From positions 1 to 48,576 of the forward strand of contig CACWKU010000008.1 in the NCBI GenBank assembly GCA_902761575.1: 48,576 bases of DNA, given 5' to 3'. Below are positions 5,433 through 34,781 of this stretch, piece after piece; the stretch's first letter is position 1, and the number at the start of each line of letters is the position of its first letter. A program made the position numbers and the translations under genes. The stretch comes from an uncultured bacterium (GTDB lineage Bacteria; Verrucomicrobiota; Kiritimatiellia; RFP12; UBA3636). The notes below the pieces were generated by a model, which was given only the letters and a program-made list of their open reading frames with translations, was not told where the DNA came from and did not search any database.

Positions 5433-5493
5433 GGTTGAAACGGTTGAAGGGGTTGAAACGGTTGAAGAGGTTGAAGAAGTTGAAAGGTTGAAG
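5433..5493 (-). repeat. tandem 9-mer array (GGTTGAARN) in the purL 5' leader
   Basis: GGTTGAAAC GGTTGAAGG GGTTGAAAC GGTTGAAGA GGTTGAAGAA GTTGAAAG GTTGAAGC lies directly upstream of the purL ATG (5422). On the coding strand it reads CTTCAACC-type and is G-poor. Confidence 0.9.
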
Positions 5494-9187: not shown

Positions 9188-9268
9188 GGTTCGAAGGTTC
9201 GAAAGTTCAAAGGTTCGAAGGTTCGAACGATTCAACCCTGGAACCTTCGAACCTTGGAACCTTGGAAC
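9188..9268. repeat. self-complementary tandem array built on GGTTCGAAG / CCTTCGAACC
   Basis: GGTTCGAAGGTTCGAAAGTTCAAAGGTTCGAAGGTTCGAACGATTCAACCCTGGAACCTTCGAACCTTGGAACCTTGGAAC fills the gspG-GT2 intercistronic gap. The two halves are mutually complementary. Confidence 0.85.
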
Positions 9269-11044: not shown

Positions 11045-11062
11045 GGTCGGAAGGGGCGGGAG

Positions 11063-11125
11063 GGTCCGGATGGTTCGGATGGTCCGGATGGTCGGGATGG
11101 TCCGGATGGTCGGGTGGTCGGGTGG
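11063..11125 (-). repeat. tandem 9-mer array (GGTCCGGAT-type) in the purB 5' leader
   Basis: GGTCCGGAT GGTTCGGAT GGTCCGGAT GGTCGGGAT GGTCCGGAT GGTCGGGT GGTCGGGTGG lies 19 nt upstream of the purB ATG. The coding strand reads ATCCGGACC-type. Confidence 0.9.
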
Positions 11126-18431: not shown

Positions 18432-19367
18432 ATGAAATCCCGAATTCCGCCGTTTTGCGGCCGCGGGGCGCTCGCCGCCGCCGCCCTTCTGTTTGCTTTC
18501 GCGCCCGCGCCGCGCGCAGGCGCGCAACAGGCCGCCGTGAACCCGTTCACCTACCTCGGGCGCGTGATGGACGCGTCCCACGCGGCGTTCGACACGAACC
18601 GCGTCGCCACGCTCTACGCCTTCGACGCCGGCGGCGCCCTCCTCGCGCGGAGCGAGACGTTCTACCGCCCGGACTCGCGCCGCAACTACCGCCTCCGCGT
18701 CCCGCTCGCCGACGCCGCCGTCAAGGGCTACTCGAAGACCGGCGCCGCGCTCTCGATCGCCGTCGAGGACGACGAGGGCAAGGTGTGGTCGGGCGTCGTC
18801 GTCGACGCCGGCGCCACGAACGGCCTCTCCACCGTCGGCGAGCCCGGCGGCGTCTACGAGGTGGACATCGTCCTCGGCGAGGACAAGGACGGCGACGGCG
18901 TCGACGACGAGCTCCGCCGCCGCCTCGAACTGGAGTGGGAGAACTCGGACCTCTGGACGAACGGCGTCCCGTTCGACCCGTCGGCCGACCACGACGGCGA
19001 CGGCGTCTCCACGATCGACGAGGCGCTCGCCGGCACCGACCCGTTCAGCGCGGCGGACTCGCTCCGCATCACGGCCTTCGCGCTCGACGCGGAAAAGCTC
19101 CGCGGCGCGTCCGAGTCGCTGATGAGCCTTTCGTTCCCGACCGCGCCGGGCCGCGTCTACGTCGTGCAGACCGCCAACGCGCCGACCGGCTCGTGGGAGA
19201 AGGCGGAGTTCTTCCTCGCCCCCGGCGACGCCGCCCCCGTGAACCTGATCTCCCTCCCCTCGACGCCCGGCGGCGGCCCGACCACCGTCTACCTCCTCCC
19301 CGCGCCCGACCGCGACGCCGCCTTCTTCCGCGTGAAGAGCGACGACGGCGCGAAAGCGGAAGACTAG
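18432..19367 (+). CDS. secreted protein with thrombospondin-type-3-like calcium-binding repeats
   Basis: Signal peptide ...AAALLFAFAPAPRAGAQQ. Repeats DKDGDGVDDE and DHDGDGVSTIDEALAGTDP. The C-terminal beta domain ends FFRVKS. TATACT (18418-18423) lies 8 nt upstream of the ATG. Confidence 0.6.
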   Translation: MKSRIPPFCGRGALAAAALLFAFAPAPRAGAQQAAVNPFTYLGRVMDASHAAFDTNRVATLYAFDAGGALLARSETFYRPDSRRNYRLRVPLADAAVKGYSKTGAALSIAVEDDEGKVWSGVVVDAGATNGLSTVGEPGGVYEVDIVLGEDKDGDGVDDELRRRLELEWENSDLWTNGVPFDPSADHDGDGVSTIDEALAGTDPFSAADSLRITAFALDAEKLRGASESLMSLSFPTAPGRVYVVQTANAPTGSWEKAEFFLAPGDAAPVNLISLPSTPGGGPTTVYLLPAPDRDAAFFRVKSDDGAKAED

Positions 19368-19383: not shown

Positions 19384-21150
19384 GTGAAACCCCGCCACGC
19401 CCTCTTTCTCCTCGCCTTCGCGCCGCTCCTCGCGACGCGGGCGGCGGAGCCCGCGGATGCGCCTTGGAAAAAGCACATGGTCGGCGACGGACTCGTGGTC
19501 TCCGTCCAGGCCGGCGGAGACGAGACCCATCCCGTCCTCTGGGTCCGCCACGATGGAGCGCCCTGTCTCGTCCGCGTCGAAAGCGACGGGCGGTTCCTCC
19601 CTCCGCTTCCCGCCGACGCGACGCCCGAAGAGACCGAACGGGGGTTCGCCTTCCGATTCTCCGACGGCTCGCCGATTGGAACCAATGGCTGCTACGCCTT
19701 CATCCATCCCCAGCCCGGCACGAACGAGAACAGTCTTCTCCATCCGTTCTTCCTGAAAGCCCGTGGCGGCTTCCTGCTGGAATGCACTCCGTTGGACCGC
19801 CGCCGGTGCGAAGGACCCGGCCAGGGAACCGTCGAATCCGACGATCCTTCGCCGCTTTGCGGCGATTGGGCGTTTGTCGGGTCGAATCTCGTCTGCCGCG
19901 TCTGGAACGAAGGCCGGCTCCCGGTCCTTGCTTCTTGCTCTCCGTTTTTCCGCGATCCTTGGGAGTCCTTCAACGTTTCCGTCGATTGCTCGGGGGAGTC
20001 GGGCTATCTCGGCTTCGGAACGCCGATTCCGATCATGTCCTGCGAGGACCGGAAACGGCTTCGCGTCCTGCCGCCGCGCGCCGGCAGGTCTCCCTCCGAA
20101 ACGCCGTGCATCGTCCGCGAGGTGTCTCTGGCGGAGGATGATCGCTACTATGTCGAGCACTTCCGGAGCTTTACGGCCGAGCAGGACGCCAACATCGACA
20201 TTTCCGTGTCGTGTTCGACCTACGACTGGACGCACCGCGAAGATTCCCCTTCGGCGCCCGAGCTGGTCTTCAAGCATGGTTCGGTTCGCCTTTCCCCCCG
20301 CTTGCCGGGCGATGCCGCGCCTCCGTCCCGGACCGTTCTCGACACGACCGTTTCCGGCGGCGTCGCCGTTCAGCGCGTTTCCGTCGGCGACCGGACGATC
20401 GCCCGGATCTGGAACACGGCCACCAACGGCGCGCTTCTCCTCCGGCTGAAGGAAGACGGACGCACGCTCCCCGCGCTTCCGCCGGACGTTTCCGCAGGGG
20501 AAGCCGCCGCCGGCATCGCGTTCCGCCGGGGCGCGACCGTTCCTTGTGCGGACGCCCGCTACGTCGAACTCGAAGCGGCGTCCTACGGTTCCGCGAAACC
20601 CGTCGAATTCGACTTGGAAGGGCCCGCGCTCGTGGAAACCGTTCCGATCGCCGCAGAACCCGAGGACTTCGATTCGTCGAAGGAACTCGACATTCCGGAC
20701 TTGGCGGGAGAATGGTTCCTGCGCGGAACGAACTTCGTTTGCCGCCTCTGGAACGACGGACGCGCCCCCTACCTGATCGGTTCGGGAATCCGCTTCGTCG
20801 ATTCCCATGTCGACGCCTCGACGCAACCCGCGGGCAACGAGGACATCGACGGAATGGAATGGCTGTTCACGTTCATGCCCGCCGCCTCCGGCCGTTCCGG
20901 CGCCGAACTCAAGCGCGTTCTCCTGCCGCGCGGGACGAACGCCGTCGCGGACGCGCAGGCCGTCGTCGGCGAATGGCCGCTCGACGGCGAAACCGCGGAA
21001 AGACTCCGCGCCGCGAGGGACGACCCGGACACCGTCCTGCGCGTCCATTGCGGCGTGTCGCCCGACGCGTGGATTCCGACCGGCGACGGTTCCGGGGCGA
21101 TCCGTCTGGACGGCTGCGTCCAGCACGTGTACCTCTCTCCATCCAAGTGA
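19384..21150 (+). CDS. secreted hypothetical protein with internal two-fold duplication
   Basis: GTG start. The signal peptide (M)KPRHALFLLAFAPLLATRAAEP is nearly identical in DNA to that of the next gene. Repeated motifs are CGDWAFVGSNLVCRVWNEGRLP and LAGEWFLRGTNFVCRLWNDGRAP. Confidence 0.55.
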   Translation: MKPRHALFLLAFAPLLATRAAEPADAPWKKHMVGDGLVVSVQAGGDETHPVLWVRHDGAPCLVRVESDGRFLPPLPADATPEETERGFAFRFSDGSPIGTNGCYAFIHPQPGTNENSLLHPFFLKARGGFLLECTPLDRRRCEGPGQGTVESDDPSPLCGDWAFVGSNLVCRVWNEGRLPVLASCSPFFRDPWESFNVSVDCSGESGYLGFGTPIPIMSCEDRKRLRVLPPRAGRSPSETPCIVREVSLAEDDRYYVEHFRSFTAEQDANIDISVSCSTYDWTHREDSPSAPELVFKHGSVRLSPRLPGDAAPPSRTVLDTTVSGGVAVQRVSVGDRTIARIWNTATNGALLLRLKEDGRTLPALPPDVSAGEAAAGIAFRRGATVPCADARYVELEAASYGSAKPVEFDLEGPALVETVPIAAEPEDFDSSKELDIPDLAGEWFLRGTNFVCRLWNDGRAPYLIGSGIRFVDSHVDASTQPAGNEDIDGMEWLFTFMPAASGRSGAELKRVLLPRGTNAVADAQAVVGEWPLDGETAERLRAARDDPDTVLRVHCGVSPDAWIPTGDGSGAIRLDGCVQHVYLSPSK

Positions 21151-21211: not shown

Positions 21212-22417
21212 ATGAAACGTCCCTTCCGCCACGCCTTCCTCCTTCTCGCCTTCGCGCCGCTCCTCGCGGCGCGGGCGGAGGAGCCCGTCGCGGATGTCAC
21301 GGCGTCGAACGCCTGCGACCGGCTCTGCCTCGACCTTCTCGCGGACGCGGCCGCCGCGCGCCGGAACGTCGTGTTCTCGCCGTTCAGCCTGTCCGGCGCG
21401 CTCGGCATGGTCGCGCTCGGGGCGAGGGGAGAGACGCTCGCGCAGATCGACCGCATCGCCGGGACGGGCCTCGACCCGGACGCGCTCGCGGAGCGGGAGG
21501 CCGGCGTGCGGGACGCGATCCTCGAGGCCGCCCGCGCGGACGGCGTCGAACTGCAGCTCGCCGATTCCCTCTGGAAGCAAAAGGGCGACGCCCCGCTGCC
21601 GGGCTTCGAGCAGGCGCTCCGCCGCGGATTCGGCGCCGAGGTCCTGGACTTCGGGCCCTTCCCGGCGTCCGACGTGAATCGCTGGGTCTCGAAGAAGACG
21701 AAGGGGCTCCTGCCGTCCGTGTTCGACGACCTCCCGGCCGGCACGCGCCTGGCGCTCGTGGACGCCGTCTACTTCAAGGCGCGCTGGGCCGTGCCGTTCG
21801 AGCGCAAGCGGACGTCCGACCGGACGTTCTATCCGGAGGGCGGTGCGCCGAAGACCGTTCCGTTCATGAACCTGCTCGCCTGGTTCGCCTACGATTCCTC
21901 GGACCGCTGGGAGTCGCTGGAAATCCCCTACCGGGGGGAGCGGTTCCGGATGCAGATCGTCCTGCCGCGTCCGGGCGTGACCGTCGCCAACCTCGTGGAT
22001 GACTGGATTTCCGGCGCCGACGCTCCGCCCGCCGCAGGCGCGCCCGACGGGAACGGGACGCGCCGCTGGACCGCCTATCTCGAACTTTCCCTCCCGAAGT
22101 TTTCGTTCGGCTCCGCGCCGGACGTCGCCGGCGCGCTGCACCGGCTCGGCGCGGCCGATGCGTTCGACCCGGCCCGGGCCGACTTGTCCGGGATGTTCCC
22201 GCCGTCGGGCGAGCCCCTCTTCCTGATGCGGTTCACGCACTGCGCCGTCGTCGATGTGGACGAGCGCGGCACCACCGCCGCGGCCGCGACCGGCATGTCG
22301 TTCGGCTGCAGCGTGCCGGCGCCTCCGGAGTTCCTGATCGTCGACCGTCCCTTCGTCTTCTTCATCCGCGAACCCGGCGGACGCATCCTCTTCGCCGGCG
22401 CGGTCTTCGAACCCTGA
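21212..22417 (+). CDS. serpin (inhibitory-type hinge), secreted
   Basis: ORF 20807..22417 was trimmed to MKRPFRHAFLLLAFAPLLAARA. Serpin motifs are FSPFSLSGALGM and NAVYFKARW-type VDAVYFKARW. The hinge is DERGTTAAAATGM and the end is DRPFVFFIRE. Confidence 0.9.
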   Translation: MKRPFRHAFLLLAFAPLLAARAEEPVADVTASNACDRLCLDLLADAAAARRNVVFSPFSLSGALGMVALGARGETLAQIDRIAGTGLDPDALAEREAGVRDAILEAARADGVELQLADSLWKQKGDAPLPGFEQALRRGFGAEVLDFGPFPASDVNRWVSKKTKGLLPSVFDDLPAGTRLALVDAVYFKARWAVPFERKRTSDRTFYPEGGAPKTVPFMNLLAWFAYDSSDRWESLEIPYRGERFRMQIVLPRPGVTVANLVDDWISGADAPPAAGAPDGNGTRRWTAYLELSLPKFSFGSAPDVAGALHRLGAADAFDPARADLSGMFPPSGEPLFLMRFTHCAVVDVDERGTTAAAATGMSFGCSVPAPPEFLIVDRPFVFFIREPGGRILFAGAVFEP

Positions 22418-22431
22418 ACCACGACCCTTCC

Positions 22432-24345
22432 ATGAAACCCTTCCTCCATTCGCCGCGTAGCGGCGCCCATCATTCGGCGCGAAGCGCCGCCCTCCATTCG
22501 GCGGCAACGCCGCCCTTCATTCGCGCCATAGGCGCGTCCTTCATTCGCGCCATAGGCGCGCCCTTCATTCGCGGCGTAGCCGCGCCCTTCATTCGCCGCG
22601 TAGCGGCGCTCTTCATTCTCTGCGCGGCCGCGCCCCGCGCGGCCGCGCAGTGCGCCGCGCAGGGCGTCACGCTCAAGCCCGGCTGGAACGCCGTCTACGT
22701 CGAGGTCTCGCCCGAGGCGGACGCCACCGCGGTCTTCGGGCCGTGGCCGGTCGACTCGGTCGGCGTCTACGACCCGGCCTCGTTCCTCGCCACGCGCCAG
22801 TTCTCGGCGGACGGCGGGTCGGACGGCCTCGTCTCGTCGCCCATCTTCATGTGGAACCGCGAGTACCCCGAGGCGACGTCCGTCACGCGCGTCCCCGCGG
22901 GCGTGGTCTGCCTCTGCTTCAACACGAACCTCGCGAGCGGGGCGGAGGGGACGTTCTCGACGAACCTCGTCGGCGTCCCCGCCGCGCCGCGCACGACGTG
23001 GCACCGCAGCGAGGGCGGCGAGGTGCTCAACTACTTCGGCTTCTCGGTGCGCCCCGGCGCGGCGGTCGCGCCCGGCGCCTACCTCGCCGGCTTCGGCGAC
23101 CTGGCGGGCGGCTCGCTGCTGCGCATCGGCGGCAAGCGGCGCGAGGACCCGCCCTCGCGCCTGCCGGTCTACTCGAACGACACGGTCTCGGACGGCGAGG
23201 TGCTGCTCGTCGGCGCGACGGCGCCCTCGGACTGGTCCGGCGCGCTGTACGTCTCGCCGATGGACGGCCTCGACTTCGGCACCAACGCGACGCTCCGCAC
23301 GCTCTCGGTCCGCAACGACGGCGGCGCGCCGCGCACGGTCTCGCTGAAGCTGGACCGCGCCGTCGCGGAGCTCGACGCCCGCCTGCCCTTCGGCCCGGCG
23401 CTGCTCGTCTGGCGCGACGCGGACGTCGCCCGCACGAACGCCGCGTGGAACGCGCTCGAGGGCTTCGGCGCGTTCGCCTCGAAGCGCCTCGCCGCCGGCG
23501 AGACGTGGCGCCTGCAGTTCGGCCTCGACCGCGCGAGCGTCCCCGCCGGGCTCGTGCAGGGCATTCCCTTCGGCGCGCTCCTCACGGCGCTCGACGACGA
23601 CGGCGGCTCGCAGATGAAGGCGACCGTCCCGCTGCGCGCGGAGACGAGCGGCGCGGACGCCGCGCGCACCGCCTGGCCCTCCGGGCTGTGGATCGCCGAC
23701 GTCGCGCTCGACACGGTGGACTTCGCCTCCGCCGAGAACCCCGCCCCCGCGGGCGGCGTCCTCAAGCTGCGCCTCCCGCTGCACGTCGACGCGGAGGGCA
23801 AGGTCCGGCTGCTGCAGCGCGTCGTCGCCGCGGGCGAGGCCGACGCCGCCGGCAACCTCGCCTACCGCCTCTACGCGGGCGAGGCCGAGCCGCCCGCCAC
23901 CGCGTCGCAGGCGCTGCGCATCTCCTCGGCCGTGCTGCCGACCGAGACGCCGGTCGTCGAGGCCTCGTTCGCCGACTTCTCGTCCGCGATCGGCATCGCG
24001 ACGTTCCAGTTCGAGGTGGCGGCGGACGGCGCCACGAGCCTCCTGCGCCACCCCTACCATCCGCAGCACGACGGCCTGCGCTGGGACTTCTCCACGCCGG
24101 CGCCATCCGGCGATTTCATCGACAACTACAAGGGCGAGGTAAAGCCCGAGACCTTCTCCGTGAAGAACACGCTCATGCTGTCGTTCGACTTCGGCGCGGG
24201 CGCCTCGCGCTGGGACCCGCAGGACGCCGTCTCCGGCTCCTGCTGGTGGAGATTCTCGGGCCTCCGCCGCGAAGGCGACCTCGTCGCCTCCGGCCCCCTC
24301 TCCCTGAAGCGCGTCTCCGCCCTCTCGGAAATCGTCCTCGAATAA
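22432..24345 (+). CDS. secreted hypothetical protein (637 aa) with hairpin-array leader
   Basis: It starts 14 nt after the serpin stop. The N-terminus is the translated repeat array and ends in RRVAALFILCAAAPRAAAQ. The mature part is unassigned and contains HPYHPQHDGLRWDF. Confidence 0.6.
   Translation: MKPFLHSPRSGAHHSARSAALHSAATPPFIRAIGASFIRAIGAPFIRGVAAPFIRRVAALFILCAAAPRAAAQCAAQGVTLKPGWNAVYVEVSPEADATAVFGPWPVDSVGVYDPASFLATRQFSADGGSDGLVSSPIFMWNREYPEATSVTRVPAGVVCLCFNTNLASGAEGTFSTNLVGVPAAPRTTWHRSEGGEVLNYFGFSVRPGAAVAPGAYLAGFGDLAGGSLLRIGGKRREDPPSRLPVYSNDTVSDGEVLLVGATAPSDWSGALYVSPMDGLDFGTNATLRTLSVRNDGGAPRTVSLKLDRAVAELDARLPFGPALLVWRDADVARTNAAWNALEGFGAFASKRLAAGETWRLQFGLDRASVPAGLVQGIPFGALLTALDDDGGSQMKATVPLRAETSGADAARTAWPSGLWIADVALDTVDFASAENPAPAGGVLKLRLPLHVDAEGKVRLLQRVVAAGEADAAGNLAYRLYAGEAEPPATASQALRISSAVLPTETPVVEASFADFSSAIGIATFQFEVAADGATSLLRHPYHPQHDGLRWDFSTPAPSGDFIDNYKGEVKPETFSVKNTLMLSFDFGAGASRWDPQDAVSGSCWWRFSGLRREGDLVASGPLSLKRVSALSEIVLE
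22441..22650 (+). repeat. mini-hairpin tandem array A1 (7-8 units of ~24 nt) plus 13-bp terminal hairpin
   Basis: Units are of the type CCTTCATTCGCGCCATAGGCGCG and CCTTCATTCGCCGCGTAGCGGCG. The terminal hairpin is CTGCGCGGCCGCG ccccg CGCGGCCGCGCAG at 22620-22650. Confidence 0.9.
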
Positions 24346-24389
24346 CCTCATTCAACCAACCAAACACCGAACCACCCAAACACCGAACC

Positions 24390-25475
24390 ATGAAAACCAC
24401 CATTCCTCATTGCCGCGAAGCGGACCGTCATTCGGCGGCGACACCGCCGCCCTTCATTTGCGGGGACGCCGCACCCTTCGTTCGCCGCGCAGCGGCGTTC
24501 GTCATTGCCGCGCTTGCGGCCTCGGCCGCAAGCGCGGCCGGCTTCCGCGCGGCGCCCGTCGCCGAATTCAAGGAAGGTGCCCTCTCCTTCGGACTCTCCG
24601 CCGGAACGACGTTCGTCGGCGGCGAGGCCCGCGAGCACGTCTTCCATCCGAAGGGGTATTTGTCCGACTATCTGGAGGAAATCCCCGGCGCGCCCGCGGA
24701 AGACCGCCGCCACCAGCTCTCCCGTCTCGACTGGGACATGGCCTCCGTCCTCGTGGGCGTCTCCGGATCCCTCCGCTACGACCGCCTCTCGCTCAACCTC
24801 GGCATCTGGTACGGCGGCAGCGGCTCCGACGACTACGACATGAAGGACTACGACTGGATGGCGGGCGACCACGTCCCCCATACCGAGTACTCCCGCTCCG
24901 ACACGGAGCTCACCGACGCCTGGCTGTTCGACGCCAACGTCTCCTTCGACTTCTGGCGCTCCGAGGGCTTCACGGGCTACGTCTTCGCCGGCGCGCGCGA
25001 GCAGCGCTGGAAGTGGACCTGCGACGGCCGCACCGACTACTGGTACACCGAGAACGGCCACGTCTGGGAGCACGAGGACGGCCACATCTGCGACTACCGC
25101 CAGGTCCTCTTCTTCGGCTACGTCGGCCTCGGCGGAAGCTGGAGGCTGACCGATTCGCTCGGCCTCTCCGCCTACGTCTCCTGGGGCCCAGGCTGGAAGG
25201 GACGCGACCGCGACAACCACATCGGCGCCGAAAAGGACACGCACGACTCGTTCGACTACGATTCCAACGTCTACGCCGCCGGCGTCTCGCTCGACTGGCA
25301 CGTCGCCGAGCGCGCGACCGTCTCCTTCGGCGTCGACTGGCAGAAGGCCACGCTCAACCAGGGGCTCCTCTCCCAATGGGAGTACGGCTCCGACGAGACC
25401 GAGGAGATGCCCGACTCCGCCGGCATGGAGAACGAGTACCTCTCCTTCACCGTCGGCCTCGACTACGCCTTCTAG
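24390..25475 (+). CDS. omptin-family outer-membrane protease (peptidase A26)
   Basis: It aligns by eye along its whole length to OmpT/Pla: SRLDWDM, KDYDWMAGD (the Asp-x-Asp catalytic pair), ICDYRQVLFFGYVGLGGSWR, RDRDNH (the Asp-x-His pair) and the C-terminal ENEYLSFTVGLDYAF. Confidence 0.85.
   Translation: MKTTIPHCREADRHSAATPPPFICGDAAPFVRRAAAFVIAALAASAASAAGFRAAPVAEFKEGALSFGLSAGTTFVGGEAREHVFHPKGYLSDYLEEIPGAPAEDRRHQLSRLDWDMASVLVGVSGSLRYDRLSLNLGIWYGGSGSDDYDMKDYDWMAGDHVPHTEYSRSDTELTDAWLFDANVSFDFWRSEGFTGYVFAGAREQRWKWTCDGRTDYWYTENGHVWEHEDGHICDYRQVLFFGYVGLGGSWRLTDSLGLSAYVSWGPGWKGRDRDNHIGAEKDTHDSFDYDSNVYAAGVSLDWHVAERATVSFGVDWQKATLNQGLLSQWEYGSDETEEMPDSAGMENEYLSFTVGLDYAF
24403..24538 (+). repeat. mini-hairpin tandem array A2 (~5 units) plus 15-bp terminal hairpin
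   Basis: Unit examples are TTCCTCATTGCCGCGAAGCGG and CCTTCGTTCGCCGCGCAGCGGCG. The terminal hairpin is GCCGCGCTTGCGGCC tc GGCCGCAAGCGCGGC at 24507-24538. Confidence 0.9.
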
Positions 25476-25483
25476 CACGCAAG

Positions 25484-25528
25484 TCCGGCGTGGCGCGGCG
25501 GGCGGCTCCGCCGCCGCCGCCCACGCCG
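25484..25528 (+). terminator. long imperfect GC hairpin after the omptin gene
   Basis: CCGGCGTGG...CCACGCCGG closes a ~45-nt stem-loop starting 9 nt after the stop. No U-tract. Confidence 0.35.
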
Positions 25529-25584
25529 GGCGTTGAACGGCCGCGCTCCGCGCGGCGCACCGCAGCCCCGGCAAACCGAACATC

Positions 25585-26355
25585 ATGCAGAAGCCCTCGC
25601 GCCGTTCCCGACTCCTCTGGGTTCTTCCGCCCGTCGCGTTTCTCGCGGCGTTGCTGCTCTGGTTCGTCGCCGAATGCGTCCGCGGAGCCGCGTTTCCCGA
25701 GCCGTGGAACGCCCCGGCGCATTCGCAGTGGATTTCGTTCCCCTTCGAGATTCTCGTGGCCGCTTCCGCCCTCGTGCTCGCCGGGGCGCCGTTCGTCGCG
25801 GCGATCAGCCGCCGAGGCGGCGCGGCAGCGCTTCTGTTTGCGAGCTGGATTCCGTGTTTCATCGCGTTCCTCTTCATCGGATTCATGTCGGGACGCGATT
25901 CCCAAAACCGCTGGGACCGCTTCGCGGACCGGCTCGAAATCCCGGAAGGCCTCGACGTCTCCGAACCCGTCGGAAAGAGCGAGGCGCCCGATATCGGTTT
26001 CGCCGCGCTGCCCGCGGATTCCGCGGATGCCGCCGCGCTGTGCCTTCGAGACTACGGGATGGGCTGCTACGCCGCCGCGATCTTCCTCCGGACGGCGGAG
26101 CCGGGTCGCATCCGCCTTCGCGCGGTCGAAGTCACGACCGGGCATTCCCTCTCGCCCTACGAGCTGGACGAGAAGACGTCGCGAGACCACGCCGGCGGCG
26201 ACGCCCGGTTCGACTGGCTCGAGTTCATCGTTGGCGAGGGCGACCTCGTCCACCCCTACGCAGCCCGCTTCGAAGTCTGTTTCCGCCCGGCCTCCGGCGG
26301 CCCCGAGCGCACAATCGGGTCGCGCGTCTACCGCATCGTCGGCTCGCAATTCTGA
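25585..26355 (+). CDS. hypothetical membrane protein (no hairpin leader)
   Basis: 256 aa with three or four N-terminal hydrophobic helices (LLWVLPPVAFLAALLLWFVA, ILVAASALVLAGAPFVAAI, LLFASWIPCFIAFLFIGFM) and a soluble C-terminal domain. No family recognised. Confidence 0.5.
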   Translation: MQKPSRRSRLLWVLPPVAFLAALLLWFVAECVRGAAFPEPWNAPAHSQWISFPFEILVAASALVLAGAPFVAAISRRGGAAALLFASWIPCFIAFLFIGFMSGRDSQNRWDRFADRLEIPEGLDVSEPVGKSEAPDIGFAALPADSADAAALCLRDYGMGCYAAAIFLRTAEPGRIRLRAVEVTTGHSLSPYELDEKTSRDHAGGDARFDWLEFIVGEGDLVHPYAARFEVCFRPASGGPERTIGSRVYRIVGSQF

Positions 26356-26397
26356 TCCCGTCCCCCCGTTTTCGAAAACTGACAAATCCCACCAACC

Positions 26398-28578
26398 TTG
26401 AACACGTCCGTCCTCCGTCATTGCCGCGAAGCGGCCCCGTCATTCGCGCCGCGCAGCGTCGCGATGTCATTGCGCCGCGCAGCGGCGCTCGTCATTGCCG
26501 CGCTTGCGGCCTCGGCCGCAAGCGCGGCCGCGCCGGTCACCCTCGCGCCGATGTTCCGCGACCACGCCGTTTTGCAACGGGACGTCCCCGTCCCGATCTG
26601 GGGAACGGCGGAGCCGGGGGCAAAGGTCGCGGTCCGACTCGTCCGTGCGGACGAGTCGGACGCGGAACCATGCGAAATGACGGCGACGGTCGGCGAGGAT
26701 GGACGCTGGCGCGTCGAGCTTCCGCCGCATCCCGCTGGCGGTCCTTACGAGCTCGGCGCAGCCGAGCTCCCCCATGCCCTCGGCGCCGCGTCCGCGCCGG
26801 ACGGCGCGGGCGCGCGCGCCGAGGACATCCTCATTGGCGATGTCTGGCTCTGCTCCGGCCAGTCGAACATGGACATGAACTACGGCTGGGGGCTCACGCG
26901 CGGGAAGGAGGACATCGAGACGAACGTGCACGCGAGGATCCGCCTCTTCGACGACCGCAACCGCACCGCGCTCTCGCCGCAGCGCGACCTGCCGGACGAC
27001 TACGGCTGGACGACCTGCGACCCCGCGCACGCAAAGTCCTTCTCCGCCGTCGGCTACTTCTTCGGGCAGGCGCTGCAGGAGGCGATGCCCGACGTCCCGA
27101 TCGGCCTCGTCGAGGCGTCCTGGTCCGGCTCGCCCATCAAGACCTGGATTCCCTACGAGGCCGCCGAGGCCCTCGGCGGCGATTTCGGCAAGCAGGCCGG
27201 CGAGCGCCGCGCCATCGCGGAGGCGTGGGAGAACGGCGGCGCCGAGCAGTTCAAGGTCGACCTCGCCGCGTGGATGGAAAAGCTGCCCGCAATCGACCCC
27301 GGCGACGCCCCCGCCGCGCCGGACTTCGACGATTCGGACTGGCAGACCGCCAACCTTCCCGAAATCACCGAGAAGCACACCAAGCCCGACTTCGACGGTT
27401 GGGTATGGTATCGCAGGACGTTCGTGATCGACGAAGAGGAGCATCCGGTCGTCGACACGGCCTCGCTTTCGCTCGGCCCCATCGACGACCAGGATTGGAC
27501 CTATGTCAATGGCGTTCTCGTCGGCACGACCAATGTGTGGGACGCACCTCGCGACTACAAGATTCCGGAAGGCGTCCTGCATTCCGGAACCAACACAATC
27601 GCGGTCAAGGTCCTCGACTGGGGCGGACACTCCGGATTCTGGAAGAACGCCCCCGCCGGCATGTCCGTATCGGTTTCGTTGGCGCAAGACGAAATCGTCA
27701 CCGAAGAATGCATCGTCGAAAGCAGTAGCACACGCACCATCCCCCTCGCCGGCGAATGGAAGTTCAAGGCGTTCCCGGCGGAGCCGCGGCCGGTGGACCC
27801 GTCGTCGCCGTCGTCGTGGGACATCGCCGCGTGCCACAACGGCATGGTGGCGCCGCTCTTCGGGATGGCGGCGAAGGGGGCGATCTGGTACCAGGGCTGC
27901 TCGGACGTCGGGCACGCGGACCTCTACGCGAAGCAGTTCCCGGCGATGGTCGGCGCGTGGCGCGAGGGCTTCGTGCACGACGACGCGGGCTTCCCGGTCT
28001 ACCTCGTGCAGCTCGCGGCGTTCAAGGAGGCGCACACGGAGCCGCTGGACTCCGCGTGGGCGCGGATGCGCTGGACGCAGATGCGGCTCGGCGAAACCGT
28101 CCCGCACTGCGGCACCGCCGTCGCGATCGACGTCGGCGACCACCGCGACATCCACCCCAAGGACAAGAAGACCGTCGGCGAGCGCCTCGCCGCTCTCGCG
28201 CTTGCGCAGACCTATGGTCGGGAAGGCCGGTCATTGAGCCCCGTGCCGTCGCAGGCGAGCTACGATTGGGCGGCGGGACACGTCATGATCCAATTCGTCG
28301 ACCCCGTATCCCTCAAGCCGGCGAAACTGCGAGAGGATTTCGACCTTCGCGGCTTCCAGGTTTTCATCGATGGCGGCGACTGGAAATGGGCGGAGAAGTC
28401 GTTCGTCAACGAAAAGATGTTCCCCGACACCGTGTTCGTGGACTGTCCCGGCGGAGTCCACACAAATGTTTGTGTCCGCTACGCGTGGGACGACTACCCC
28501 GACTGCAACCTCGTTTCCGCCGACGGCCTTCCCGTCGGCCCGTTCGAGCTGAAGGCGAAAATCCTCGATCTCAAATAG
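26398..28578 (+). CDS. sialate O-acetylesterase-like carbohydrate esterase with inserted galactose-binding-like domain
   Basis: The motif GDVWLCSGQSNM is typical of the 9-O-acetylesterase family. The segment DDSDWQTANLPE...WVWYRRTF is typical of a sugar-binding jelly roll. The track start is TTG. An in-frame ATG at 26464 would give MSLRRAAALVIAALAASAASA. Confidence 0.8.
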   Translation: MNTSVLRHCREAAPSFAPRSVAMSLRRAAALVIAALAASAASAAAPVTLAPMFRDHAVLQRDVPVPIWGTAEPGAKVAVRLVRADESDAEPCEMTATVGEDGRWRVELPPHPAGGPYELGAAELPHALGAASAPDGAGARAEDILIGDVWLCSGQSNMDMNYGWGLTRGKEDIETNVHARIRLFDDRNRTALSPQRDLPDDYGWTTCDPAHAKSFSAVGYFFGQALQEAMPDVPIGLVEASWSGSPIKTWIPYEAAEALGGDFGKQAGERRAIAEAWENGGAEQFKVDLAAWMEKLPAIDPGDAPAAPDFDDSDWQTANLPEITEKHTKPDFDGWVWYRRTFVIDEEEHPVVDTASLSLGPIDDQDWTYVNGVLVGTTNVWDAPRDYKIPEGVLHSGTNTIAVKVLDWGGHSGFWKNAPAGMSVSVSLAQDEIVTEECIVESSSTRTIPLAGEWKFKAFPAEPRPVDPSSPSSWDIAACHNGMVAPLFGMAAKGAIWYQGCSDVGHADLYAKQFPAMVGAWREGFVHDDAGFPVYLVQLAAFKEAHTEPLDSAWARMRWTQMRLGETVPHCGTAVAIDVGDHRDIHPKDKKTVGERLAALALAQTYGREGRSLSPVPSQASYDWAAGHVMIQFVDPVSLKPAKLREDFDLRGFQVFIDGGDWKWAEKSFVNEKMFPDTVFVDCPGGVHTNVCVRYAWDDYPDCNLVSADGLPVGPFELKAKILDLK
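26411..26528 (+). repeat. mini-hairpin tandem array A3 (~4 units) plus 15-bp terminal hairpin
   Basis: Its last 42 nt (26489-26530) are identical to 24499-24540, and it has the same terminal hairpin at 26497-26528. Confidence 0.9.
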
Positions 28579-28648
28579 CGTGCGACGCGTAGCTCGTTTC
28601 GCCAATTCCTCCACCATGAATCCTCGATTCCCCCGACATCCGATGCCC

Positions 28649-28690
28649 GGCCGCCTCGCGAGACGGCAGGGCCGGCTCGCGCAGGCGGCC
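28649..28690 (+). terminator. hairpin downstream of the esterase gene (possible terminator)
   Basis: GGCCGCCTCGCGAG ...13 nt... CTCGCG(C)AGGCGGCC lies 70 nt after the stop. Confidence 0.3.
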
Positions 28691-28793
28691 GAAATCTCCC
28701 GTTTCTGCGGCCCGTTCGAACTGGAGATCACGCCCTGACCCCTTGCCCGCTCCCCGGAGCGCCCCCCATCAAAAACCAAAACACACAACGACC

Positions 28794-29888
28794 ATGAATA
28801 CTCCCGCCATCCGTCATTGCCGCGCAGCGGCCCCTTCATTCGCCGCGAAGCGGCGCCCTTCATTCGCCACGAAGTGGCGGTCGTCATTCGTCCTTGCGGC
28901 GGCGCTTTGCGCGCTGGCGCAAAGCGCCGCCGCCGCGGACGTCTCCTTCGCCTACCAGGGCGTGCTGCGCGCCGACGACGGCGGCGCGCTCCCCGAACGC
29001 AACCAGACGGTCGAGTTCCGCCTCTACGACAGCCCCGACGGCGAGACCGCGCTCTGGGGGCGCACGGTCGCGGTGCTGCTCGACGAAAACGGGCTCTTCA
29101 ACGCCGAGCTCTCCGACTCCGCCGGCTCGACGGCCCCGGGCGCCCCGGGCACCGGGCTCGCCGGCGTCTTCGCCGCGAACGCGGACAAGTCGCTCTTCGT
29201 CGGCCTCACGGTCGTCGGGACGAGCGGCGAGATCGCGCCGCGCCAGAAGATCCTCCCCGTGCCCTACGCGGTCTTCGCCTCCGACGTCGCGTCCGCGAGC
29301 GGCGACTTCGCCGCGGCCGGCGTCCTCACCGCGGCCTCCGCGACGTTCTCGGGCGGCGTCTCGGCCGCCTCGCTCGACGTCGCCGGCTCCGTCGCGGCCT
29401 CGTCGCTCTCCGTCACGGGCGACGCGACCGTCAACGGCGACCTGCAGGTCGGCGGCGCGGTCTCCGGCTTCGGCACGGTCCCGCTGGAGTGCATCATCCT
29501 GTGGAGCGGCTCCGCGGACGACATCCCGAACGGCTGGGCGCTCTGCAACGGCCAGACCGTCAACGGGCACACGACCCCCGACCTGCGCAACCGCTTCGTC
29601 GTCGGCGCCGGCACGGGCTCGCAGTACACGGTCGGCGAAACGGGCGGCGAGGAGAAGCACACGCTCTCGGAGAGCGAGATGCCGTCGCACTCGCACACCT
29701 ACGACTTCAAGGGCGCGGACTTCAAGGGCGCGTGGGACGACGACAACTACGTCTACGACGCATCCGGGCACTACAAGGACAGGTCCCAGAACGACAACCG
29801 GCGGACCACCAACTCGACCGGCGGCGGCGCCGCCCACGAGAACCGCCCGCCGTACTACGCGCTGTGCTACATCATGCGCGTCCGCTAG
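28794..29888 (+). CDS. secreted tail-fibre-like protein with C-terminal phage tail collar domain
   Basis: ORF 28743..29888 was trimmed to MNTPAIRHC. The N-module is FAYQGVLRADDG...VEFRLYDS...ALWGRT...PRQKILPVPYAVFA. The collar motifs are IPNGWALCNGQ, TPDLRNRFVVGAG, MPSHSHTY and HENRPPYYALCYIMR. Confidence 0.85.
   Translation: MNTPAIRHCRAAAPSFAAKRRPSFATKWRSSFVLAAALCALAQSAAAADVSFAYQGVLRADDGGALPERNQTVEFRLYDSPDGETALWGRTVAVLLDENGLFNAELSDSAGSTAPGAPGTGLAGVFAANADKSLFVGLTVVGTSGEIAPRQKILPVPYAVFASDVASASGDFAAAGVLTAASATFSGGVSAASLDVAGSVAASSLSVTGDATVNGDLQVGGAVSGFGTVPLECIILWSGSADDIPNGWALCNGQTVNGHTTPDLRNRFVVGAGTGSQYTVGETGGEEKHTLSESEMPSHSHTYDFKGADFKGAWDDDNYVYDASGHYKDRSQNDNRRTTNSTGGGAAHENRPPYYALCYIMRVR
28809..28933 (+). 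repeat. mini-hairpin tandem array A4 (~4 units) plus 17-bp terminal hairpin
   Basis: It includes the covarying unit CCTTCATTCGCCACGAAGTGGCG. The terminal hairpin is GCGGCGGCGCTTTGCGC gctg GCGCAAAGCGCCGCCGC at 28896-28933. Confidence 0.9.
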
Positions 29889-29899
29889 CGCGGCCGCTC

Positions 29900-30026
29900 A
29901 TGATGAATGAAGGGTTCCACTGCGCGGAAAATGAAGGGTGCTTCGCAAATGAAGGGTGCGCCTGCGGCGCAAATGAAGGGTCCCGCTTCGCGGGAAATGA
30001 AGGGTGCGGCTGAGCCGCAAATGATG
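29900..30026 (-). repeat. reverse-complement mini-hairpin array (5-6 units) downstream of tail-collar gene 1
   Basis: AATGAAGGG + TGCGCC tgc GGCGCA / TCCCGC ttc GCGGGA / TGCGGC tga GCCGCA. It starts 12 nt after the stop at 29888. Confidence 0.9.
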
Positions 30027-30077
30027 CAGTCAAACAATCCACGCTTTGCAACCATGACACGTTTCTTCGTTGCTTGT

Positions 30078-31487
30078 ATGCATCGCATCCGCTCCTATCA
30101 TTCGCGCGGAGCGCGCCACCCATTTGCCGCGCATCGGCACCCTTCATTCGCGCCAGCGGAGTGTCCTCCATTCACGACGAAGGCGTGCCCTTCATTCGCG
30201 CCAGCGGAGTGCCCTCCATTCACGCCGAAGGCGTGCCCTTCATTCGCGACGCGCAGCGGCGCGCCCTTCATTTGCGGCGGAGCCGCACCCGTCATTCGCG
30301 GCGCAGCCGCGCTCGTCATTGCCGCGGCCGCGACAGCGGCCGCGAGCCCGGCGCCCGCGCCGTGGAGGCAGGCCGACTTCGCGGCCGACCTCTATCGCAA
30401 GGCGGCGTCGGTGCAGCCGGCGGACGAAAACGTCGTGCTGTCGCCGTGGGGCGTGGCGAACCTCTTCGCGCTGCTGCAGACCGGCGCGCGGGGGGACACC
30501 GCTCGCGGCATGGCCTTCGCGCTGCAGCTCGGCGGCGTCGAGCCGCCCGAGCCCGACGCCGTCGCCGCGACGTTCCGCGAGTCGCGCACGAACCTCGAAC
30601 GCGCCGCGAACGACGACGTCGCGCTCGAGCTCTCCGATTCGCTCTGGATCAAGCCCGGATTCGCCCTGTCCGAGAGCTTCCGCTCCCTTGCCCGCGACTC
30701 CTTCGACGCCGACGTCCGCCTCACCTGGATGGGCGCCAAGGGTCGCAAGGAGATCAACGCCTTCGTCGCCGAGAAGACCCACGACCGCATCAAGGACCTG
30801 ATCCAGCCGCCCGTCCTCGACGATCCGCTGACGCGCCTCGTCGCCGTCGACACGGTCTACCTCAAGGCCAAGTGGGAGATCCCCTTCGAGAAGGACGCCA
30901 CGCGCGACCGGACCTTCCACGCGCCGGGCGGCGACGTCGAGGTCCCGTTCCTCCACGACACGCGCCACGCGGAGATCCTCGACGCGCCCGAGTGCGCCGC
31001 GCTGCGGCTCCCGTACCGCTTCGGCTCGGCGGAGATGCTCGTGATCCTGCCGTCGCCCTCCAACACGCTCGCGGAGGTCGAGGCGAAGCTCTCCGGCCCG
31101 TGGCTCGACCGGCTCGCCGCCAAACCGTGGCGGGGCGAGGCCGTCCTCGCGCTCCCGAAGTTCGACTTCGGCAGCGAGCACGACCTGTCGAAGACGCTCC
31201 CGTACATGGGCATGGGCGCCGCGTTCGACCCCGCCCGCGCCGACTTCTCCGGCATCGCGCCGCAGCTCTACATCGGCACCGCCATCCAGAAGGCCAACGT
31301 CACGGTCGACGAAGCCGGCACCGAGGCCGCCGCCGCGACTTTCGCGGTCATGCTGGAAGGGTGCATCGGTCCGATGGAGAACGTTCCGCCCCCGCGCCCG
31401 TTCGTCGCCGACAGGCCGTTCCTCTTCATCATCCGCGAAACCCGCACCGGCCTGATCCTCTTCCTCGGCCGCGTCTGCAAGCCCTAG
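30078..31487 (+). CDS. serpin (inhibitory-type hinge), secreted, with long hairpin-array leader
   Basis: The start was chosen as MHRIRSYHS by analogy with neighbouring leaders; alternatives are 30054 and 29907. Motifs are LSPWGVANLFALL and VDTVYLKAKW. The hinge is DEAGTEAAAATFAV and the end is DRPFLFIIRE. Confidence 0.85.
   Translation: MHRIRSYHSRGARHPFAAHRHPSFAPAECPPFTTKACPSFAPAECPPFTPKACPSFATRSGAPFICGGAAPVIRGAAALVIAAAATAAASPAPAPWRQADFAADLYRKAASVQPADENVVLSPWGVANLFALLQTGARGDTARGMAFALQLGGVEPPEPDAVAATFRESRTNLERAANDDVALELSDSLWIKPGFALSESFRSLARDSFDADVRLTWMGAKGRKEINAFVAEKTHDRIKDLIQPPVLDDPLTRLVAVDTVYLKAKWEIPFEKDATRDRTFHAPGGDVEVPFLHDTRHAEILDAPECAALRLPYRFGSAEMLVILPSPSNTLAEVEAKLSGPWLDRLAAKPWRGEAVLALPKFDFGSEHDLSKTLPYMGMGAAFDPARADFSGIAPQLYIGTAIQKANVTVDEAGTEAAAATFAVMLEGCIGPMENVPPPRPFVADRPFLFIIRETRTGLILFLGRVCKP
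30093..30344 (+). repeat. mini-hairpin tandem array A5 (~10 units, includes a 48-nt higher-order repeat) plus 9-bp terminal hairpin
   Basis: CCTTCATTCGCGCCAGCGGAGTG(T)CCTCCATTCACG(A/C)CGAAGGCGTGC occurs twice. The terminal hairpin is CGCGGCCGC gaca GCGGCCGCG at 30323-30344. Confidence 0.9.
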
Positions 31488-31500
31488 GAGCGAAACTCGT

Positions 31501-34254: not shown

Positions 34255-34265
34255 CGCGGCCGCGC

Positions 34266-34396
34266 ATGATGAACGAAGGGTGCTTCGCAAATGAAGGGTG
34301 CTTCGCAAATGGAGGGTGCCGCTCCGCGGCAAATGAAGAGTGCGCCTGCGACGCAAATGAAGAGGACTTCGCGAATGAAGGGCGCGTTTCGCGCGA
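34266..34396 (-). repeat. reverse-complement mini-hairpin array (~6 units) downstream of tail-collar gene 2
   Basis: AATGAAGGG/AATGGAGGG/AATGAAGAG spacers alternate with TGCCGC tcc GCGGCA and similar stems. It starts 12 nt after the stop at 34254, in the same junction sequence as at 29888. Confidence 0.9.
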
Positions 34397-34415
34397 ACGG
34401 AAAGAATCGACCGAC

Positions 34416-34781
34416 ATGAAACCGGAAGACGATCCACTGAAAGAGAAGAGCATGGCGTTCGCCGTGTGCGCGGTGAAGCTCGCGAGGTGGCTGCGCGAGG
34501 AGAAAAAGGAGTTCTCCCTCGCCGACCAGATTCTGCGGAGCGGAACCAGCATCGGCGCGAATCTGGCGGAAGCCCGCCACGCCGCGTCGCGCAAGGACTT
34601 TCTCGCGAAGTGCAAGATCTCGCTCAAAGAGTGTTCCGAAACCCTCTTCTGGATCGAACTGCTCGAACGCTCGGACCTTCTTTCCCGCGACCAGGCGAAG
34701 CCCCTTGCTTCCGATTGCAACGACATCCGCCGCCTTCTCGCGGCTTCTTGTAAAACTCTCGAACGGAATCTCCAGCCATGA
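34416..34781 (+). CDS. four-helix-bundle protein (23S rRNA intervening-sequence protein / Avd-like family)
   Basis: 121 aa, MKPEDDPLKEKSMAFAVCAVKLARWL...ADQILRSGTSIGANLAEARHAASRKDFLAKCKISLKECSETLFWIELL. This is the characteristic GANIAEG/SxxDF/ExxYWL pattern. GC is visibly lower than in the neighbours. Its stop overlaps the next ATG (ATGA). Confidence 0.85.
   Translation: MKPEDDPLKEKSMAFAVCAVKLARWLREEKKEFSLADQILRSGTSIGANLAEARHAASRKDFLAKCKISLKECSETLFWIELLERSDLLSRDQAKPLASDCNDIRRLLAASCKTLERNLQP

Follow-up and report, generated by a model that had tools for sequence, protein, structure and literature searches.

Two serpins and a protease of the omptin family are encoded close together in a 48,576-nucleotide (nt) stretch of DNA from an uncultured cattle-gut bacterium of the class Kiritimatiellia (contig CACWKU010000008.1 of assembly GCA_902761575.1; this whole stretch is the window here), and the question raised by this locus is whether the inhibitors and the protease act on each other or belong together for some other reason. 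A preliminary description, made from the sequence letters, had placed serpin genes at 21212..22417 and 30078..31487 with an omptin gene between them, at 24390..25475, and had offered two readings, namely a self-contained protease/serpin control circuit at the cell surface, or a paired kit of offence (the protease) and defence (the inhibitors). All three genes are what they were taken to be, and the proteins are new members of known families. As far as the literature shows, what has not been described before is their setting: a conserved gene cluster, a cassette-like polymorphism in the reactive-centre loop (RCL) of the serpins, and a repeat leader common to many of the cluster genes. Our literature search found no paper on serpins or omptins of Kiritimatiellae, or on a bacterial serpin–omptin cluster.

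The serpins, here serpA (21212..22417, forward strand, 401 amino acids, signal peptide MKRPFRHAFLLLAFAPLLAARA) and serpB (30078..31487, forward strand, 469 amino acids), each cover positions 3–370 of the 370 positions of the PF00079 profile (E=1.7e-73 and E=1.1e-86) and align end to end with inhibitory serpins of known structure, the best matches of both among PDB sequences being conserpin (1.2e-47 for serpA) and bacterial and animal serpins (1e-47 to 1e-49). Inhibitory-type hinges had been read in both, and they are present and match the rule for inhibitors, according to which P17–P9 is ExGTEAAAA with small residues at P12–P9 (PMC8233489). The serpB hinge, EAGTEAAAAT, begins at 31311 and fits this consensus exactly, and that of serpA, ERGTTAAAAT, begins at 22262 and has Thr at P13. 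Across 109 serpB-type sequences, P15–P8 (G-T-E-A-A-A-A-T) is nearly invariant. Both proteins had also been described as carrying signal peptides, and both are secreted, with the qualification that in serpB, as in the omptin, the signal peptide follows a long N-terminal extension encoded by 24-nt repeats. The open serpB reading frame reaches back to 29907, and 30078 is a plausible start because the proteins of relatives begin at the equivalent position (MRSIRAFH...). From these sequence features, our reading is that both serpins would be exported, conventional suicide-substrate inhibitors.

The canonical P1 residue was tentatively located by counting 17 residues from P17, which yields Ser in serpA (22310–22312; FGCS|VPAPPEF) and Gly428 in serpB (31359–31361; MLEG|CIGPME). 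This counted register is supported, because Arg occupies the P1 column in many relatives (MKLR|SAG, MAQR|SIG and, in the serpA of the related locus L001, GCR|AP). For serpB the register stays uncertain, given the length of its P' side and the fact that HMMER places its 'PM' on P2–P1 of alpha-1-antitrypsin.

The RCL is also where the serpins differ most between strains. In the 109 serpB-type sequences, P5–P3' is the most variable eight-residue window of the mature protein (entropy 2.16 bits, against a mean of 0.60), and in the window the variable cassette spans 31341–31391. The closest backbones, which are 96.9% identical outside the loop, bear a different loop (FAVAPAS|AMPGPPPPPP, versus FAVMLEG|CIGPMENVPPP in the window), and the same loop types reappear on backbones from 97% to 78% identity. 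At the DNA level, serpB of the window and of locus L057 are 95–100% identical over most of the gene, with dips to 0.85–0.92, and identity drops to 0.57–0.65 solely at 31320–31409. Contigs with the window-type loop and with a WDYFDGED-type loop coexist in one bovine sample (X5), in which a further contig skips 31347–31419, with unread sequence between, and a third RCL type is probably present there. The serpA loop likewise differs among orthologues that are 95–97% identical (GCR|APERPES in L001, GCS|LPALPEF in L027). At the level of sequence, this pattern reads as the signature of inhibitors whose specificity has been diversified or is maintained as a polymorphism, and such cassette diversity favours varied external targets over one fixed partner. 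Among animal serpins (rodent alpha-1-antitrypsin/Spi, exon 9 of Manduca serpin-1), a conserved body with a short RCL that varies round P1 has been read as retargeting. The serpB variants share the conserved body and the sharply differing RCL segment, but they are alleles in different bacterial strains and not paralogues or splice forms; if the parallel is true, they would be the first bacterial counterpart of RCL hypervariability in animal serpins. Near-isogenic serpins that differ in the bait loop alone would in addition amount to a natural experiment on serpin specificity, and on which gut proteases are relevant to bacteria.

No second copy of any RCL cassette that could serve as a silent donor was found in 563 kb of sampled sequence. 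A diversity-generating retroelement was considered as the source of the variation and rejected, as the window contains neither a reverse transcriptase domain nor a template repeat. In some relatives, Avd-like four-helix genes of the 23S_rRNA_IVP family lie just before serpB or the last, giant gene of the cluster (L008 18029–18385, L018 9639–10004, L057 12065–12394, among other loci), and HipA, Fic, NERD and AAA_14/DUF4143 genes interrupt the series of cluster modules; none of these genes is present in the window.

The omptin (24390..25475, forward strand, 361 amino acids) matches PF01278 with E=8.5e-27. Its catalytic couples had been read as intact in KDYDWM and RDRDNH, and alignment with OmpT (1i78) and Pla bears this out: DYD corresponds to Asp83/Asp85 and DRDNH to Asp208/Asp210/His212, in the OmpT numbering, which was cross-checked against the 1i78 alignment. 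In the window protein, the catalytic residues are D153/D155 (24846–24854) and D275/H277 (25212–25220), and the acids of the S1 pocket are E82 and D273. When the window protein was aligned with 75 database relatives (n=76), D83 and D85 were kept in 76/76, D210 and H212 in 75/76, Glu27 in 75/76 and Asp208 in 72/76, and Asp97 was replaced by Glu in 56/76. Of the positions of the lipopolysaccharide (LPS) site, Glu136 and Arg138 are kept, Tyr134 is Ala, Arg175 is Val, and Lys226 falls in a gap. An AlphaFold2 (AF2) model built with 24 sequences has a predicted local distance difference test score (pLDDT) of 82.7, and Foldseek matches it to Pla (2x4m) and OmpT (1i78) with E=1.5e-24 to 6e-23, target template-modelling (TM) scores of 0.84–0.89 and, for most chains, root-mean-square deviations of 2.1–2.7 Å at 21–22% identity. 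The window protein, as judged from alignment and model, is a divergent omptin with a predicted ten-stranded barrel and intact catalytic residues. Like OmpT, Pla, PgtE and IcsP/SopA (MEROPS A26, PF01278), it combines the modelled barrel with identical catalytic couples and the conserved Glu27/Asp208; unlike these enterobacterial proteins, to which it is 21–22% identical, it has a long N-terminal leader, an insertion after strand 1 and an LPS site that is partly kept, its host is a commensal bacterium of the Planctomycetes–Verrucomicrobia–Chlamydiae (PVC) group and not a pathogen, and its neighbours are the secreted-protein genes p311 and g22432.

An omptin in such a genome had been called taxonomically unusual, and with regard to the enterobacterial picture of the family it is (PMC3048539), but it is not new, as NCBI already names some of these proteins 'omptin family outer membrane protease' and 'serpin family protein' of Kiritimatiellae. 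The GC content at third codon positions (GC3) of the omptin gene matches that of the genome, and thus there is no sign of recent transfer. What emerges is a deep clade of omptins with conserved catalytic residues, and it lies apart from the pathogens on which work on this family has centred. A second omptin clade of Kiritimatiellae, 54–57% identical, was also observed (L012, L016, L017 and L037–L048, including many short contigs). Its genes stand next to thiamine salvage genes in divergent orientation, with a gene for a membrane protein of 206–309 amino acids following in every case; the clade occurs without the cluster genes and is set apart in a neighbour-joining tree.

The genes discussed here lie in DNA of about 70% G+C, as the preliminary description's 'high-GC PVC-like' had it, and the relatives are indeed labelled Kiritimatiellae. 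At this G+C content raw lists of open reading frames are mostly noise, and reading frames were judged with GC3 frame plots, which back the frames of serpA, serpB and the omptin and show a single co-directional gene run at 18.4–43.5 kb. This run is flanked by housekeeping genes (purL, purB, Sir2, TrkAH, an aminotransferase), which sets the extent of the cluster at about 18.4–43.5 kb. A public bovine-gut DNA contig matches 18300–24528 with 0 mismatches, and the gene arrangement is therefore real and no assembly chimera. Relatives of the omptin in species-representative genomes come from metagenome-assembled genomes labelled Kiritimatiellae or 'uncultured Verrucomicrobia', from the gut of cattle, sheep, goat and roe deer; in the protein database, the omptin clade of the window accounts for 75 clusters, and serpB-type serpins of at least 63% identity for more than 120. 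Both families are common in ruminant-gut Kiritimatiellae, and the lineage is an abundant and uncultured one in the rumen. Bovine-gut libraries that are labelled as transcriptome or metatranscriptome contain contigs matching serpA, g22432, the omptin and serpB, which suggests that these genes are expressed, with DNA carry-over possible. All cluster genes are on the same strand, with gaps of about 13–15 nt from serpA to g22432 and from serpB to the following fibre gene. There were no convincing terminators among the cluster genes, and promoter and terminator scans yielded just the hairpin repeats described below. Judged from this arrangement, the cluster genes are likely coupled in an operon.

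We mapped the window proteins onto 58 related loci (L numbers) by tblastn and used precomputed Pfam tables in addition. In the window, the order is p311, [g19384, serpA], g22432, omptin, [g25585, SASA esterase], collarS, serpB, collarL, giant, in which collarS and collarL encode tail-fibre-like proteins and the brackets mark accessory or inserted genes; leaving these aside, the order p311, g22432, omptin, collarS, serpB, collarL, giant is found again in relatives with omptins of 57–90% identity (L018, L025/26, L030, L045). The window, L003, L024, L025/26 and L057 have the pair of g25585 and the SASA esterase. L030, L036, L040 and L045 do not, and in these collarS directly follows the omptin; the loci L036 and L040 end just past these two genes. 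In most relatives collarS lies upstream of serpB, and collarL directly follows serpB with a gap of 11–15 nt and is itself followed by the giant gene (L018–L023, L025, L030, L045); in L057/58, a gene for 694 amino acids stands between serpB and collarL. In other relatives serpB lies directly upstream of the omptin (L008/9, L014, L032/33). The accessory gene is serpA, which adjoins p311 or g22432 in the window, L001, L027, L014, L031 and L032 and is missing from L007, a 92–96% relative. Altogether, at least 10 further independent contigs have a serpin gene no more than 10 kb from the omptin, with omptins that are 59–90% identical and in several gene orders, so that the co-localisation noted in the window is conserved in related genomes. 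The tightest partners of serpB are the tail-fibre-like and giant genes, and those of the omptin are p311 and g22432. Across at least four gene orders, and in relatives with an omptin identity as low as 57–60%, the cluster genes remain grouped, and this persistent co-location is moderate evidence, at the level of gene order, for a functional gene set.

A further link between the omptin and serpB comes from the 5' ends of their genes. Seven cluster genes (g22432, omptin, SASA esterase, collarS, serpB, collarL and giant) start with tandem 24-nt units, each consisting of TCATTCG, a 6-bp stem, a GNA loop, the complementary 6-bp stem and CCC, and serpA, g19384, p311 and g25585 are without them. Within 22443..34899, forward-strand arrays lie in the 5' coding ends of these genes (22443–22635, 24425–24500, 26437–26470, 28814–28890, 30098–30327, 31568–31651 and 34797–34899) and two reverse-oriented arrays are intergenic (29906–30024 and 34275–34381); in the window, TCATTCG is confined to 22.4–34.9 kb. 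The stems co-vary, and across the genes the units are translated in all three frames, from which it follows that they are elements at the nucleic-acid level. No Rfam family reached its gathering threshold in the repeat leaders. The 24-nt units also occur in L014 and L018–L021 and are absent from the close relatives L001, L007 and L008, and array length varies between samples, with indels of 48 nt and net 60 nt (in frame) and a 46-nt skip in the collarL leader, a comparison based on assembled contigs. In relatives without the 24-nt units, the same genes start with ATGAAA followed by three to five copies of CTCGTCA ('MKLVTRHSSLV'). In these relatives the heptamer tracts are part of the sequence that encodes the signal peptide, and they occur in the genes for the omptin, serpB, g22432, the two fibre proteins and a FadL/Toluene_X protein (for example L001 8125 and 9929; L008 8572, 10001, 12110, 14916 and 16097; L014 2452; L020 7045), and 29 of the 36 CTCGTCA arrays with at least three copies in the 563 kb are at 5' ends of cluster genes, omptin and serpB included. 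A loose-pattern scan of omptin leaders gave mostly noise; the heptamer leader is found in cluster-type omptins and not in the thiamine-linked paralogues. The window itself has an intergenic CTCGTCA run of 11.9 copies at 43996–44078. The common leader links the omptin with serpB independently of gene order, and as a sequence feature it suggests common regulation, export or phase variation. The CTCTT leader repeats of Neisseria opa genes offer a comparison: in both cases a tandem repeat with a unit length not divisible by three, here CTCGTCA in relatives, lies in the signal-peptide region of several surface genes. Unlike in opa, copy number is low, no frameshifted alleles were seen, and the window has in-frame 24-nt hairpin units in place of the tract.

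How, then, may the serpins and the omptin be related in function? The reading that we favour, with a confidence that falls just short of even, is that the serpins shield the co-encoded surface apparatus from foreign serine proteases and that the omptin, also a member of this gene set, is a surface protease in its own right. The three genes would be parts of one rearrangement-prone cluster for secreted and surface proteins in ruminant-gut Kiritimatiellae; the strain-specific bait loops would point to foreign gut serine proteases—of host, protozoal or bacterial origin—as targets, and the serpins would protect the cell envelope as well as the exposed products of the fibre and giant genes. The omptin, given its retained acidic S1 pocket, would most likely cut at basic residues of surface-exposed substrates, which might be proteins of its own cluster, in processing or shedding, or cationic peptides. 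An omptin is known to act in this way on IcsA, which is processed and shed by IcsP. The omptin would be neither inhibited by the serpins nor their dedicated regulator. Of the earlier notion of a kit for offence and defence, the looser form survives, in which protease and inhibitors are components of one surface-protein gene set; the two are not each other's tightest partners, as these are other genes.

Several points weigh against the shielding role and must be set beside it. A Gly (serpB) or Ser (serpA) at the canonical P1 is unusual, and the P' side of serpB is five to eight residues longer than that of alpha-1-antitrypsin, which makes its scissile bond uncertain. There are cluster-type loci without an omptin (L020, L022), and L002 and L015 show no serpin in the available flanks; synteny conserved within one clade could be the result of inheritance instead of selection; the contigs from RNA libraries could contain contaminating DNA; and the protective role is argued by analogy. 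The nearest precedent for it, a functional analogy, is found in the dockerin-bearing cellulosomal serpins of Clostridium thermocellum and Ruminococcus flavefaciens, one of them from the rumen, which were proposed to protect cellulosomes (PMC2930009, PMC5301203, bioRxiv 10.1101/2020.04.21.053413). There, too, a serpin is encoded and deployed with a large extracellular assembly, but in the window the link is one of gene order, and the partners are tail-fibre-like proteins and not glycoside hydrolases; no dockerin or cohesin match was found in the cluster proteins (Pfam, NCBIfam). Miropin of Tannerella forsythia, the siropins of Eubacterium siraeum and the serpin of Bifidobacterium longum resemble the window serpins in being exported, in the ExGTEAAAA hinge and in coming from host-associated anaerobes, and serpins of this type are thought to face foreign proteases (PMC8233489, PMC5127057). 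Unlike these, the window serpins belong to Kiritimatiellota, lie in a cluster with fibre, giant and omptin genes, have a cassette-like RCL with Gly or Ser at P1, and are known from sequence alone.

The circuit of the preliminary description, in which the omptin cleaves the RCL of its own serpin or a serpin restrains the omptin, is very unlikely in our judgement. Serpins trap proteases as a covalent acyl-enzyme, and omptins use a water molecule activated by Asp and His and form no acyl-enzyme, so a serpin cannot trap an omptin. The other direction has a precedent, as the enterobacterial omptins Pla and PgtE cut the RCL of the serpin PAI-1 (PMC3724046), and it could draw on the conserved co-location, on the position of serpB, which in L008/9, L014 and L032/33 is the gene just before the omptin, and on those relatives that have an Arg P1 or basic pairs (KLR|S, IRKD and, in L001 serpA, GCR|A). 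However, from P8 to P11' the RCLs of serpA and serpB in the window contain neither Lys nor Arg, and thus lack the cleavage sites that omptins use in PAI-1 and in dibasic substrates. The RCL is moreover hypervariable and the catalytic and S1 residues of the omptin are invariant, which is the opposite of a fixed cognate pair, the constant partners of serpB are the fibre and giant genes, and the clusters of L020 and L022 are without an omptin. A serine protease of the bacterium itself, encoded elsewhere and engaged, for example, in maturing or turning over the fibre and giant proteins, is a target that we regard as quite unlikely. Each serpin gene does end about 13–15 nt before a gene for a large secreted protein, and many phage-type fibres need proteolytic maturation. 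Yet no window gene has a serine-protease domain (Pfam, NCBIfam, PHROGs), g22432, considered as a protease and rejected, is modelled as a chain of immunoglobulin (Ig)-like sandwiches without a protease fold, and RCL cassettes that differ between near-identical genes are not what a fixed target would be expected to favour.

A further alternative to shielding, that there is no functional link and the genes are merely inherited together in a shared variable island of secreted-protein genes, we consider unlikely. It would fit the unrelated cargo in the islands of relatives (HipA, Fic, NERD, AAA_14, 23S_rRNA_IVP), the coming and going of g19384, serpA and the g25585–SASA pair, and the separate omptin clade beside thiamine genes without these neighbours, and if it were correct, the finding would reduce to new members of two known families. 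What speaks for more than synteny is the togetherness through at least four gene orders, to 57–60% omptin identity, and a distinctive leader repeat that is common to the cluster and rare elsewhere in the sampled DNA. That serpB might be a non-inhibitory chaperone for trimeric fibre proteins, as HSP47 is for collagen, is suggested by its place between two trimer-type fibre genes in most relatives, and it is extremely unlikely, as the inhibitory hinge consensus is exact and the variation is centred on P5–P3', a hallmark of protease-directed specificity. Beyond the shielding of the surface apparatus, a wider picture can be drawn, which we put forward as tentative and, taken as a whole, doubtful: balancing or diversifying selection might maintain serpB, placed between adhesin-like fibre genes, as a set of interchangeable RCL cassettes that recombination swaps among the strains living in one animal, within a new surface 'armour and fibre' system in which the omptin and the other cluster genes are coordinated through the shared repeat leader, possibly as a regulon or a phase-variable set. 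The partnership of serpins with fibre, giant and omptin proteins in any case provides hypotheses on how a bacterial surface apparatus is protected or processed, and, if true, a role for an omptin in commensal surface biology outside the Enterobacteriaceae.

The remaining cluster genes, all on the forward strand, are mostly of secreted proteins. The first, p311 (18432..19367, 311 amino acids), encodes a secreted protein with DxDGDG (TSP3-like) calcium-binding motifs and without a Pfam, NCBIfam or PHROG match, and it is a conserved omptin neighbour: its orthologues adjoin the omptin or g22432 in L001–3, L007, L008, L014, L015, L018, L025, L030, L045 and others. It is followed by the accessory gene g19384 (19384..21150, 588 amino acids), which encodes a secreted protein of two repeated halves, with a signal peptide resembling that of serpA and no family match (Pfam, NCBIfam, PHROG). 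A stretch of 1.84 kb between g19384 and serpA, whose signal peptides are near-identical, is missing in samples X3, X5 and X13; the deletion joints are 19453/19461 > 21300/21303, of which 19461>21303 fuses the two similar leaders, and the DNA depth of g19384 is about 0 in X3 and X5. From these joints, g19384 would thus appear to be a strain-variable insertion, or to have been lost by recombination between the two leaders. The gene g22432 (22432..24345, 637 amino acids) begins 14 nt past the end of serpA and has 453 homologues, all hypothetical proteins of Kiritimatiellae. It encodes a secreted protein that is predicted to be all beta with several Ig-like sandwiches (AF2 model, pLDDT 75), and its Foldseek matches in the PDB, which are pilus chaperones and MG domains, are all weak, with TM no higher than 0.15.

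Two inserted genes separate the omptin from the fibre genes (25585..28578): g25585 encodes a membrane protein of 256 amino acids, and 26398–28578 a SASA-type carbohydrate esterase with a GH2_N domain (Pfam SASA 9.1e-15). The small tail-fibre-like protein of collarS (28791..29888) has a phage tail-collar C-terminal domain (PF07484, PF21939; phrog_1800, tail collar fiber, 2.5e-26) and a weak match to NCBIfam Bdello_MAT_N, the N-terminus of Bdellovibrio mosaic adhesive trimers. The large fibre-like protein of collarL (31501..34254), which starts 13 nt past the end of serpB, has two repeated N-terminal domains and a tail-collar C-terminus (PF07484; phrog_1800, 2.2e-23). The C-terminal 300 nt of collarS (29602–29901) and collarL (33968–34267) are 86% identical, and collarL contains an internal duplication of about 810 nt (31679–31808 versus 32504–32633); this similarity and duplication are substrates for recombination between the fibre genes. 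An origin from a prophage or tailocin was considered and rejected, as the phage-like parts are the fibre-type C-terminal domains alone, with no further phage genes. The last cluster gene, giant (34778..43501), encodes a secreted protein of about 2,900 amino acids without a Pfam, NCBIfam, PHROG or PDB sequence match, and its orthologues of 2,900–3,243 amino acids follow collarL in relatives.

Tandem repeats of lower G+C content, with units of 8–9 nt or 16 nt, are also present in many intergenic regions of the window (5433–5492, 9188–9268, 11059–11125 and 24354–24390; examples of the repeat sequences are GGTTGAAAA, GGTTCGAA, GGATGGTCC and AACCAACC), so that this organism would seem to carry short tandem repeats in 5' regions quite generally.

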